A stretch of DNA of 64,000 nt from Patescibacteria group bacterium (GCA_038065455.1 JBBTQX010000002.1:6779-70778), one strand, 5' to 3'; shown: positions 28,847-32,176, numbered from the stretch's first letter. Notes: generated by a model from the letters alone, not told the origin. A program made the numbers and translations.

Positions 28847-29128
28847 ATCCCGTTAGAGACATTTCTATGTATTACAATTACGTTTTAAGAAGCAAAAAAG
28901 ATGGGAAATGGTATACTGGCTACACGAATGATCTACGGAAGCGCTTTAGCCAGCACAATAGCGATAAATTCCCTCAATGGACCAAAAATCGGGGTCCTTT
29001 TGAAATCATATACTATGAAGCCTGCAAAGATCTGCAAGATGCAAGGTCGAGGGAATATTATCTAAAAACAGGAATGGGTAAACGTTATATCAAAAATAGG
29101 CTAAAGCGCTTCCTGTCTCTAACGGGAT
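28847..29128 (+). mobile_element. G-family coding element: 282-bp unit with perfect 15-bp TIRs enclosing only a GIY-YIG nuclease ORF
   Basis: ATCCCGTTAGAGACA at 28847-28861 and TGTCTCTAACGGGAT at 29114-29128; AT-rich (~37% GC); flanks ATGTAT / ATGAAC; the TIRs encode the ORF's N- and C-termini. Confidence 0.7.
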
Positions 29129-29130
29129 GA
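28867..29130 (+). CDS. GIY-YIG nuclease family protein (YhbQ/YazA UPF0213-like, ~87-95 aa)
   Basis: YYNYVLRS..DGKWYTGYTNDLRKRFSQHN ... RGPFEIIYYE...AR.REYYLK. GIY-YIG motifs with the catalytic Arg and Glu in place. An alternative ATG at 28843 lies inside the left TIR. Confidence 0.7.
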   Translation: MYYNYVLRSKKDGKWYTGYTNDLRKRFSQHNSDKFPQWTKNRGPFEIIYYEACKDLQDARSREYYLKTGMGKRYIKNRLKRFLSLTG

Positions 29131-30371
29131 ACCTCAAAACCCGGCGAACTCTCTTTTACTTCTTCATTCTCATATTCGTCCTTGCGGGCGCTTATCTCCT
29201 CGCAACCGCCCAGGGGCTGGTCCTGGATTTCAAAAATCTGAAGATTACCGGCACTGGCGGGCTCTTTTTGAAGTACGTTCCGCCCGACGCGACTGTGGAA
29301 TTGAACGGCAAAAAAACCGATGTTTCGCCCGGCCTCGTTTCGAGCGGAATTTTCATCTCTAAATTAATTCCCGACGAATACCGGGTAAAGATTTCAAAAC
29401 CGGGCTTCTCTGCCTGGGAAAAGACACTCGCGGTTAAGAACGGCGCGGTGGCTTCGGCGAGCCAAATCAGGCTCTGGCCCGAAGTCTGGGATTTGAATGT
29501 CATTACGACGAGCTCCGTCCGGGATTTCCGGCTCACGGGTGCGGGTCTAGTACTCCAAGGAAAAAACGGAACTCTTCGGCTGGACGGATTTTCTTTGGGA
29601 AACAGGAGTGTCGCTTTGAGCGGGCCGGACTCGTCCCTCATCGTTACGACCGATGAAAAAGAAAATTTTGTAACCAATCTCGAAGATTTGTCACCCGCGC
29701 TCGATATCGTCCGGCTCTTTAATTCGCTGAAACAAAGCCAGTTGAATCTTCCCGGCACGATCATTCCTAAAAATTACTTCCTTCATCCCTTTAACGCCAA
29801 AATTCTCATCACGACCGGAAACGCGCTTTACTCGCTCGATATCAAAAGATTGAGACTTGAAAAACTGACCGATATGGCAGGAATTAAGAAGGCGGAATTA
29901 AGGGGAAACGAAATGTTTCTTTTCGATATGAAAGACAATATAACGACATTCAATCTTTTTCTCCAAACTGCCAGAATTTATGAATCGACCTCCACCGAAG
30001 CCATCGGAATAGGAGCGAGCCTGGCCGGCTTGCCGGCCCCCGACGGGAAAAAGATTTTTTTGCTTTCAAAAAACGACACGCTTTCTTTGAAAGTTTTGGA
30101 AAATTATTATGCCGACGGCGAAGTGAGAAAGGGCGATATGTGGCCCGTTTTTTCCGACCGGGGCAAAATAACGGATTTCAAATGGTTGAATGGCAATTCT
30201 AATTATGCGCTGGTACTTGCCGAAAAAAACTTGTTCATCGTTGAAACCGACCGGCGCACCCCGCAGAATATCCGACTCATATCCCAAGGAGTGGAAAAAT
30301 TCGCGACGGAGGGAAACGATCTCTATATCCTCAAAACCGACGGCACGCTTCTGAGGGCGAGTTTGAAGTAG
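29127..30371 (+). CDS. PEGA-domain envelope protein (hypothetical)
   Basis: N-terminal TM helix; PEGA-like segment (VPPDATVELNGKKTD...YRVKISKPGFSAWEKTLAVKNG). Its ATG is formed by the element's flank. Confidence 0.45.
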   Translation: MNLKTRRTLFYFFILIFVLAGAYLLATAQGLVLDFKNLKITGTGGLFLKYVPPDATVELNGKKTDVSPGLVSSGIFISKLIPDEYRVKISKPGFSAWEKTLAVKNGAVASASQIRLWPEVWDLNVITTSSVRDFRLTGAGLVLQGKNGTLRLDGFSLGNRSVALSGPDSSLIVTTDEKENFVTNLEDLSPALDIVRLFNSLKQSQLNLPGTIIPKNYFLHPFNAKILITTGNALYSLDIKRLRLEKLTDMAGIKKAELRGNEMFLFDMKDNITTFNLFLQTARIYESTSTEAIGIGASLAGLPAPDGKKIFLLSKNDTLSLKVLENYYADGEVRKGDMWPVFSDRGKITDFKWLNGNSNYALVLAEKNLFIVETDRRTPQNIRLISQGVEKFATEGNDLYILKTDGTLLRASLK

Positions 30372-30381
30372 AAGACGAATT

Positions 30382-30750
30382 TTAAAAAATATCAGAGACT
30401 CTAGTCAGTGCAAGCCGATTCATGACTTCATCGTCATAGTTATCCATATGGACACAGATGCAAAGTAAGACGATAACGGCGCCTTTTACTGCGAACCACA
30501 TTCGGGGATACTGATTGGGTCTTAAATTATCATTAGGAACAACGAGTTCTACTTTCCATAAGGTCCAGATATCATTCTGCGTTACCCTGTGTAATTTTGC
30601 CGGGGCTATTATTTGCTTCGGATTCTCCGGATTGAATTGAAATTCGCACAACCTCTTGAATGAATCTAAACCGTCTTTAAGATGACGAAATCGCCGCTCA
30701 AGGGCGGCGATTTCTTTTTCTATGCCGTCATGATACAGAAATTCAATCAT
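30382..30750 (-). CDS. hypothetical 122-aa protein with a C-terminal hydrophobic helix; candidate toxin partner (PanT-like) of the upstream antitoxin
   Basis: 4-nt ATGA overlap with the upstream gene; AT-rich; hydrophobic stretch MWFAVKGAVIVLLCICV; no recognisable family. Confidence 0.35.
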   Translation of the reverse strand: MIEFLYHDGIEKEIAALERRFRHLKDGLDSFKRLCEFQFNPENPKQIIAPAKLHRVTQNDIWTLWKVELVVPNDNLRPNQYPRMWFAVKGAVIVLLCICVHMDNYDDEVMNRLALTRVSDIF

Positions 30751-31238
30751 AGGTCGCTGAAATCCGTACCGCGATAGAACGCGAGTTCATATGAAATATC
30801 CTCTCCCGGCTTCGTCCCAACATATGGGGCCTCAGCATGGGAAAGTTCGCCAAGCTGTTTTCCATTCAATTGGCCGTATTTTATGGCAACGCGATCAAGC
30901 ATTCTTCTTTCTTCGATATCTAATATTAATTCATCCGGTTCCGCCAAAGAACTGTAAACCTCAATTGGATTATATCCATTTCCCAATTCGACGGCTTTGG
31001 CAAGAAGTATTTTTTTCTCGGACATTTCCGATATAATTTTCTCAAAAGAGACTGGTACTGGCCCCATAGGAAGGGCTTTATATGTATCCCCAGTTATAGG
31101 TTTCTGATTCTTTTCGAAGAAATCAAAATCAGCAAAATAAAGGAGTTTTGCTAGTTTTTTCTTCCCTTGGATTTCACCTCCTAATTTCTTACAGAGATAT
31201 AGTATAACTTGCTGATATTTCTTCTTTTGGAGGGTCAT
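30747..31238 (-). CDS. Panacea/DUF4065 (SocA-like) antitoxin-domain protein
   Basis: KKLAKLLYFADFDFF...PITGDTYKALPMGPVPV matches the DUF4065 signature (KLqKLLYfaD...GPV). Confidence 0.55.
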   Translation of the reverse strand: MTLQKKKYQQVILYLCKKLGGEIQGKKKLAKLLYFADFDFFEKNQKPITGDTYKALPMGPVPVSFEKIISEMSEKKILLAKAVELGNGYNPIEVYSSLAEPDELILDIEERRMLDRVAIKYGQLNGKQLGELSHAEAPYVGTKPGEDISYELAFYRGTDFSDL

Positions 31239-31353
31239 TTTACTTAACAGTATTATACCACAATAAAACTCAAAACAACAAGAAAATGGCTATCTGAATA
31301 GTAAAATGAAGACTTAACTTAAATGTTTCAATGCTCCTTCTCAATGCAACAGT

Positions 31354-31382
31354 GGAAAAAAAATCCCCGAAGGGATTTTTTT
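31354..31382. terminator. bidirectional intrinsic terminator after rpsI
   Basis: A7-ATCCC-cgaa-GGGAT-T7. Confidence 0.55.
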
Positions 31383-31833
31383 AACGCTTGCGCCACTGTT
31401 GCGGCCGTCTCGCTTTCCGCAGGCCGTATTTCTTGCGCTCCACCTTCCGGGGGTCGCGTTTCATAAAGCCGAGGGATTTCAATTTGGAACGCCAGGTGGG
31501 ATTCAAAGCGACGAGGGCGCGAGACAAGCCGAGCCGGATGGCTTCTGCCTGGGAACTCAAGCCACCTCCTCCAACCAATGCCGTCGCGTGGTATTCCTTG
31601 AGCGAAAGCTCGCCGAAGGGAGCGAGGACGGTCTTCTGCAATTTCGCGGTCGGAAAATATTCGGAAAAGGGCAAATCATTCACGATAATCTCCGGAGTCT
31701 TGCTCGCCGCTTTGCGGCCGGAAAAAAGCCGGACGCGGGCGACCGCGGTCTTCCGGCGGCCGATAGCCTCGATATATTTATCCTTTTCCTTTTCAATTTT
31801 CTTCGCCGGATGGGCGGTTGTTTTCGAAGGCAT
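31381..31833 (-). CDS. rpsI: 30S ribosomal protein S9 (basic N-terminal extension)
   Basis: GRRKTAVARV...GGG..SQAEAIRLGLSRAL...RRPQ.SKR. Start set at the internal Met (MPSK), which abuts the rplM stop. Confidence 0.85.
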   Translation of the reverse strand: MPSKTTAHPAKKIEKEKDKYIEAIGRRKTAVARVRLFSGRKAASKTPEIIVNDLPFSEYFPTAKLQKTVLAPFGELSLKEYHATALVGGGGLSSQAEAIRLGLSRALVALNPTWRSKLKSLGFMKRDPRKVERKKYGLRKARRPQQWRKR

Positions 31834-31834
31834 T

Positions 31835-32176
31835 TTATTTTTCGATAATGAGATTTTTAAGCCGTTTCGCATTCAGGCGGTTTTTGGGCAACATCAGGCG
31901 CACGGCGTGCCGGAGAACCCAGGCCGGATTCTTTTTGAAAACATCGGCGAATTTCCGCTCCTTGAGATGTCCCAGGGGGCCGGTGTGCTTATAATAAATC
32001 TTCTGATTGGTCTTCTTGCCGGAAACGGCGATTTGCGAAGCGTTCGTGACCAGTACCCGGTCGGTATTCATAAGCCGCGGATTATAATTCGGGCTCTTCT
32101 TACCTTGGAGCAAAAAAGCTATCTCCGAGGAGAGCCGGCCTAATTTTTTGTTTTTCGCGTCGATTTGATGGTCCAT
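31835..32176 (-). CDS. rplM: 50S ribosomal protein L13
   Basis: Conserved L13 core (LGRL.S.IA..L.GK). Confidence 0.85.
   Translation of the reverse strand: MDHQIDAKNKKLGRLSSEIAFLLQGKKSPNYNPRLMNTDRVLVTNASQIAVSGKKTNQKIYYKHTGPLGHLKERKFADVFKKNPAWVLRHAVRLMLPKNRLNAKRLKNLIIEK

Follow-up and report, generated by a model that had tools for sequence, protein, structure and literature searches.

A mobile Panacea-domain cassette of Patescibacteria: a probable type II toxin-antitoxin pair with a predicted RelE-fold toxin

The locus

The window analysed here is a stretch of 64,000 nucleotides from a Patescibacteria group bacterium, and all coordinates without a locus label are counted from its first letter. 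On its minus strand lie two open reading frames, for proteins of 163 and 122 amino acids, exactly where the original prediction had placed them, and the stop codon of the first overlaps the start codon of the second in a 4-nt ATGA (Table 1). We refer to these genes as panA (antitoxin) and panT (toxin). The cassette is AT-rich, as had been noticed (40.4% GC; the whole window has 47.7% and its flanks 48.0%).

Upstream of the cassette are the genes of two ribosomal proteins, rplM (L13, 120 bits) and rpsI (S9, 124 bits), and its boundary on this side is the rpsI terminator (the hairpin ATCCCTTCGGGGAT followed by T8), which stands between rpsI and panA. On the other side the cassette is convergent to a gene for a protein of 414 amino acids, whose stop codon is 10 nt away from that of panT. 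The location proposed initially, beyond the rpsI terminator and convergent to this gene, is therefore right, but the label "PEGA" attached to the latter is only marginal: residues 46-110 score 20.1 bits for a cut-off of 20.8, and the rest of the protein has no Pfam match. A search of Rfam with positions 30,200 to 31,500 gave nothing above the gathering scores.

Two minor features of the neighbourhood can be mentioned. Just upstream of the 414-aa gene, an ORF of 95 codons encodes a GIY-YIG nuclease domain (59 bits) and lies in a patch of low GC content (0.39). In the S9 ORF, about 37 residues precede the Pfam S9 match (residues 38-163), so that either the protein has an N-terminal extension or its true start is the internal methionine at residue 14.

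Table 1. Features of the cassette and of its surroundings, and loci of interest elsewhere (positions in the window, unless preceded by a locus label, L).
Feature	Position	Strand	Description and basis
GIY-YIG ORF, 95 aa	28843..29130	+	nuclease domain
Gene for 414-aa protein	29127..30371	+	marginal PEGA match
panT, 122 aa	30382..30750	-	toxin, predicted RelE/YafQ-like fold; AF2, Foldseek and hhalign
Conserved 11-bp inverted repeat	30687..30714		in toxin codons 13-22; terminator scan
ATGA overlap, panA stop / toxin start	30747..30750	-	ORF coordinates
panA, 163 aa	30747..31238	-	stand-alone Panacea-domain antitoxin; ORF call and PF13274
Putative sigma-70-type promoter of the cassette	31252..31281	-	read from sequence; inferred
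rpsI intrinsic terminator	31356..31376	-	ATCCC-TTCG-GGGAT then T8; read from sequence
S9 ORF	31384..31872	-	Pfam S9 match
Broken-toxin loci	L011:3001-3366; L037:3001-3366; L041:3001-3366; L054:2711-3070; L055:3001-3365		full-length PanA beside a broken toxin
Distant relatives in defence-island-like neighbourhoods	L061:1-1229; L059:1-861

A stand-alone Panacea protein as the candidate antitoxin

The domain identity of the 163-aa protein can be considered settled. The motif KLAKLLYFAD...PMGPVP, for which it had been assigned to the SocA/PanA antitoxins, is present, and the protein passes the threshold of the DUF4065 profile (PF13274, SocA_Panacea) easily, with 70.1 bits for a cut-off of 25.7 (E = 3.8e-19) over residues 29-139. 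The identical protein in NCBI is named "Panacea domain-containing protein", and the profile is matched by all 48 PanA orthologues. There is no HTH and no other N-terminal domain in PanA. Its C-terminal tail (residues 140-163) is conserved, and I148, Y150, E151, L152, Y155, R156, T158 and F160 are invariant in the alignment of the 48 orthologues. Since PanA lacks any additional domain, it probably neutralises its toxin by binding it directly. Ernits et al. 2023 (PMC10440598) demonstrated this mode of action for other antitoxins that consist of a Panacea domain alone.

A Panacea domain is also found in the antitoxin of SocAB, the type VI system of Caulobacter crescentus, and one could imagine that PanA is likewise a ClpXP adaptor, delivering an unstable toxin that blocks the replication clamp. 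We consider this scenario very improbable. It is true that the NCBIfam equivalog SocA_antitoxin matches PanA below its threshold (31 bits, E = 1.8e-7), and that the most distant member of the toxin family (P0201) weakly matches SocB_toxin (15.1 bits, E = 0.0086). However, these scores are far under the respective cut-offs of 190 and 210 bits; the P0201 match is limited to N-terminal helices (residues 7-79), for a SocB model of 228 positions; and the toxin of the window, which is unrelated to SocB in length and sequence, does not match SocB_toxin. In addition, Kurata et al. 2022 (PMC8832971) describe stable complexes between the tested PanA proteins and their toxins, as in type II systems. We have dropped the SocB lead; the ORF beside the Panacea gene of Sinorhizobium is not SocB either.

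A small and distinct family of partners

The 122-aa protein has an identical counterpart in NCBI, from a Patescibacteria genome, which is called "hypothetical protein". No curated model of Pfam, NCBIfam, PADLOC or PHROGs matches the toxin of the window, no curated model of PHROGs or NCBIfam matches any of the 47 family members at its threshold, and the family consensus sequences have no match in Pfam. The thresholds of the curated RelE/ParE families (YafQ_toxin PF15738, ParE_toxin PF05016 and others) are not reached; the best such match among the 47 members, to YafQ_toxin in one of them (E = 0.033), is below threshold. Likewise, searches of the PDB sequences with phmmer and two profiles found no RelE relative of the toxin. 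Weak matches of the toxin to the TATA-binding protein and to Blr reflect composition only and were rejected.

The family comprises 581 clusters at 90% identity. Among the 120 relatives listed, nearly all are 122 amino acids long and 70-78% identical, and those that are named belong to Parcubacteria-type candidate phyla. When 1.84 billion cluster representatives were searched exhaustively with HMMER, only 81 relatives of the toxin were retrieved; the family is small and distinct.

The predicted fold, and the question of a membrane helix

The original prediction recognised no toxin fold in the 122-aa protein and saw in it a probable transmembrane segment, MWFAVKGAVIVLLCICV. Neither statement is supported. 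From an alignment of 47 sequences extending down to about 20% identity, AF2 produces a globular beta-alpha-alpha-beta4-alpha model of high confidence (pLDDT 97.1, pTM 0.90), composed of beta1 (residues 3-6), alpha1 (8-20), alpha2 (24-38), beta2 (53-58), beta3 (63-68), beta4 (83-89), beta5 (92-99) and alpha3 (107-121). Its N-terminal strand, two helices and antiparallel sheet are those of the RelE/ParE superfamily fold. When this model is compared with the PDB by Foldseek, the best 24 of the 50 matches listed are all RelE-superfamily RNases, including HP0892, HP0894, YafQ, the HigB of Streptococcus pneumoniae, the HigB1 of Mycobacterium tuberculosis and the HigB2 of Vibrio cholerae, as well as the RelE of Thermus thermophilus, YoeB and the RelE-like domain of Cami1. 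Among them, HP0892 has an E-value of 0.017 (probability 0.98) and HigB (6af4) a probability of 0.99 with TM-scores of 0.62 and 0.65; these figures should be read in the light of the whole list, in which every E-value is at least 0.017 and the TM-scores lie between 0.4 and 0.65.

The stretch once taken for a transmembrane segment (residues 84-100) is, in this model, the beta4-beta5 hairpin, in which residues 83-99 make up two strands of the globular sheet. The hydrophobic stretch itself is genuine, since the 19-residue Kyte-Doolittle mean reaches 2.12 from residue 84 in the copy of the window, but its reading as a hydrophobic helix in a membrane does not hold. The hydropathy peak exceeds the classical threshold of 1.6 in only 3 of the 47 members (median 0.96), a polar turn, with insertions and deletions in the relatives, occupies the middle of the stretch, and we found among the members no conserved transmembrane helix of the kind that a membrane-disrupting PanT would have. 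A toxin that inserts into the membrane through MWFAVKGAVIVLLCICV is consequently, in our opinion, hardly credible, even if a class of membrane toxins has been validated among the PanTs (PMC8832971) and even if AF2 drew a helix at residues 90-103 when run on a shallow alignment (29 sequences, 70-78% identity). This last model had a pLDDT of 48; we regard its helix as spurious and have discarded it. The matches of the confident model are to soluble RNases, and our prediction for the partner is a soluble, RNase-like toxin of the RelE/YafQ type, not a membrane toxin. The case shows that a membrane helix may be wrongly inferred from a hydrophobic beta hairpin or from a shallow alignment.

Proteins of the RelE/ParE fold include gyrase poisons as well as RNases, and one may therefore ask whether the same cassette, with the same fold, encodes a ParE-type gyrase poison blocking DNA replication. 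ParE and RelE have a common fold, one member of the family weakly matches the Pfam model ParE-like_toxin (E = 0.074), and ParE-domain partners of Panacea have been reported by Kurata et al. We nevertheless find a gyrase poison unlikely: neither ParE nor MqsR structures occur among the 50 Foldseek matches listed, of which the first 24 are RNases, and the conserved His, Tyr, Arg and Lys of the family align with active-site positions of YafQ.

Candidate active site

This last alignment comes from a comparison of the toxin-family profile with a profile of the YafQ family that we built from a query sequence identical to PDB 4ml2_A. The hhalign result is weak (P = 0.0065, probability 5.8%, 86 collinear columns), and it is informative only with the YafQ family profile, the comparison with the single YafQ sequence being not significant. 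It pairs H50, W56-K57, R60, H87 and F91 of YafQ with H54, W65-K66, R77, H101 and Y105 of the toxin, whereas the catalytic H63 and D67 of YafQ have no conserved counterpart in the toxin family. P82 and R/K83 are present in 47 of the 47 members, and after these two invariant positions no polar residue is better conserved than H101 (46/47) and Y105 (43/47). We thus propose H54, K66, R77, R83, H101 and Y105 as candidate active-site residues, where H101 and Y105 could act as an acid-base pair and K66, R77 and R83 could stabilise the phosphate.

Both families are basic: the toxins have pI values with a median of 8.7-8.9, and YafQ has a pI of 9.4. The toxin of the window (pI 6.4) has the lowest value of 29 close relatives.

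Conserved pairing, mobility and decay of the toxin gene

That the two genes form a conserved cassette with the architecture of a toxin-antitoxin pair is well borne out by the related loci. A scan of one genome per species, with the alignment of close relatives as query (and consequently restricted to close relatives), produced 52 loci. An ORF of about 163 codons abuts the toxin gene wherever the contig permits, and in nearly all of the 52 a full-length Panacea ORF does so; the overlap is 4 nt in most of them and 8 nt in one sub-branch. The upstream neighbour of the toxin encodes a Panacea protein above the Pfam threshold in 48 of the 48 loci that could be scored. The same is observed in the distant relatives (20-36% identity), where a Panacea gene is directly upstream in 5 out of 5, the two genes overlapping by up to 20 nt or lying up to 100 nt apart; a sixth distant relative is located at the end of its contig, and the ORF that precedes it is truncated. 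This pairing is far beyond chance, and the divergence of PanA is correlated with that of the toxin (Mantel r 0.80, equalled in 0 of 2000 permutations).

By contrast with the pair, the flanks are not conserved: 45 loci fall into 34 groups of unrelated flanks, none of which shares the flanks of the window. The conserved operon thus goes no further than these two genes, which move as a unit. We detected no copy of the toxin on plasmids (tblastn) or in the viral contigs of IMG/VR.

In five loci a broken toxin gene lies beside a full-length PanA (Table 1). The breaks are all different (TAG at codon 68, TGA at codon 65, TAG at codon 85, TAA at codon 57, and one frameshift), and in the loci scanned we saw no broken antitoxin beside an intact toxin. 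If disruptions are proportional to gene length, all five would hit the toxin with a probability of about 0.015 by our own calculation. Decay of the toxin alone is the pattern that one expects when a cell cannot survive the loss of only its antitoxin.

This asymmetry (5 loci to 0) bears on a further hypothesis, according to which the pair is conserved and mobile without being a poison and its antidote: an inactive RelE-fold protein and a sensor partner serving phage defence alone, for instance, or a pair that does not inhibit growth. Of the PanTs that Kurata et al. tested, eight were non-toxic in E. coli, a sensory role for Panacea has been proposed by Ernits et al. (PMC10440598), and some relatives are located beside Cas1-Cas2-Csn2 and HEPN/nucleotidyltransferase genes. 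Such a pair would, however, hardly lose its toxin gene only, or conserve the candidate catalytic residues so strongly, and we think that there is little chance that this hypothesis is correct.

The neighbourhoods just mentioned are those of two distant relatives (L061 and L059), and they are defence-island-like.

Expression of the cassette

A putative promoter precedes panA. It consists of a -35 box TTGTTG (31281-31276) and a -10 box TATAAT (31257-31252), separated by a spacer of 18 nt that contains TG before the -10 box. A consensus promoter scan did not call it, because its -35 box matches the consensus at only three positions out of six. The distance between the -10 element and the ATG of panA is 13 nt and no Shine-Dalgarno sequence is visible, so that the panA mRNA probably has no leader or almost none. 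Many related loci have an element of the form TTG..N17-18..TAtTAT equally far from the panA ATG. This suggests that a promoter-like element travels with the cassette and that the antitoxin mRNA is leaderless or nearly leaderless in these relatives too. Examples are L007, L008, L010-L012, L015 and L031, where the promoter-like element precedes the panA ATG by about 10-14 nt and a Shine-Dalgarno sequence is lacking.

The toxin gene contains a second element of possible regulatory interest, the inverted repeat GAAATCGCCGC-N6-GCGGCGATTTC. The minimum free energy of its hairpin, computed over 48 nt, is -20.7 kcal/mol. Of 40 close loci, 30 have retained the hairpin, but the distant members of the family lack it. 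In 38 distinct sequences, standard pairs occupy 86.8% of the pair cells, compared with 31-48% in slid controls, and 13 cells are compensatory, a number attained by none of 500 shuffles. The entropy of synonymous codons is 0.55 in the stem region and 0.85 outside (p = 8.6e-5), and the codons of the loop vary freely. Departures to G.U and to A.C are equally common (26 and 28), and therefore do not indicate on which strand the repeat acts. On the plus strand it is followed by TTTTTCT, which gives it the appearance of a terminator, and it was indeed called by the terminator scan. It may stop convergent transcription, or mark the 3' end of a transcript for the antitoxin only. The kis-kid operon (parD) of plasmid R1 is a precedent for antitoxin-only transcripts.

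Comparison with known systems

Kurata et al. 2022 (PMC8832971) found MqsR-like, PemK and ParE domains among the partners of Panacea, and Dataset S1 of that article lists two clusters of predicted, untested PanA partners that resemble our toxin: T14 (HHpred HigB-2, 99.7%), which includes Candidatus Saccharimonas, and T28 (YoeB/ParE). As in the present cassette, the Panacea antitoxin comes first and a small toxin of the RelE/ParE superfamily second, in genes that overlap or are closely spaced (-4, -8, -11), and with Candidatus Saccharimonas T14 also has a representative of the candidate phyla radiation. A RelE-fold toxin with a Panacea antitoxin is consequently of a known kind, T14 and T28 being already listed, and the "novel toxin" announced by the original prediction is not novel in this sense. 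It does appear to be new as a sequence family, because no curated model matches it, and it may be distinct from T14, which was found through a strong HHpred match to HigB-2. As for the antitoxins, the T14 PanAs of Cryosericum and of two Saccharibacteria have an HTH N-terminal domain, unlike our PanA, whereas those of two Methanobrevibacter have no HTH, as here.

Among the best structural matches are DinJ-YafQ, HP0892 and HP0894 (2otr, 4lsy, 4ml0, 4q2u, 1z8m). The C-terminal H87-x3-F91 of YafQ corresponds to H101-x3-Y105 in the collinear profile alignment. The toxin described here differs by a beta3-beta4 loop of 14 residues and by an additional helix at its C-terminus (107-121); H63 and D67 of YafQ are not conserved in it, it fails the Pfam YafQ_toxin model, and its antitoxin, a Panacea protein, is unrelated to DinJ. 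The latter is a ribbon-helix-helix protein. The HigBA of S. pneumoniae (6af3/6af4) provides the highest TM-scores (6af4, 0.62-0.65, probability 0.99), and it has, like the V. cholerae HigB2 (8a0x), a chain of similar length (110-119 aa); but the sequence identity to HigB and HigB2 is only about 10%, and their antitoxins are different. In the Panacea-associated clusters of RelE fold, as listed, the antitoxin gene comes first. The classical higBA order is the reverse, with the toxin first.

Proposed mechanism and implications

Taking these data together, we think it likely that the locus is a type II PanA-PanT toxin-antitoxin cassette with a RelE-fold toxin, the latter probably an mRNase of the ribosomal A site. 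A short promoter would drive a bicistronic message, from which PanA, a stand-alone Panacea domain, would be translated first and the toxin by coupling, as the ATGA overlap implies. The toxin would be a soluble protein of RelE/ParE-superfamily fold, closest in shape to YafQ/HP0892 and to the HigB RNases, which would most likely bind the A site and cleave mRNA there unless PanA holds it by direct binding. The alternatives discussed above rank, by decreasing weight, as ParE-like poison, non-poison pair, SocAB-like system and membrane toxin.

This proposal gives a predicted fold and a testable mechanism to a family publicly named "hypothetical protein", and provides one more RelE-fold partner of Panacea, and a well-supported one. 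The host organisms cannot be grown alone, so that the five independent knock-outs of the toxin gene are useful natural evidence of its toxicity. The conserved hairpin may bear on the way in which the ratio of toxin to antitoxin is set.

A bolder idea, which we put forward as a speculation with the odds clearly against it, is that the family represents a RelE branch restricted to the candidate phyla radiation and to Panacea antitoxins (every copy examined is paired with Panacea), with a different target or chemistry, an output perhaps set by the internal hairpin, and a role as a phage-defence switch. If this were true, the hairpin could yield an antitoxin-only transcript, and ultra-small episymbiotic bacteria would possess a phage-defence switch of this type.

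Distribution of the family

The family is present in at least 52 species-level genomes, mostly titled Patescibacteria or Parcubacteria-type candidate phyla. All the relatives that we looked up (including 20 distant representatives) come from metagenomes or metagenome-assembled genomes and have no RefSeq accession. Three loci (L048, L049 and L050) carry the cassette in metagenome bins labelled "uncultured Gammaproteobacteria", the titles of the other loci being mostly those of Patescibacteria, Parcubacteria-type phyla or Saccharibacteria bins, with a few simply called "bacterium". These three bins may be mislabelled, or they may reflect a transfer of the cassette outside the candidate phyla radiation.
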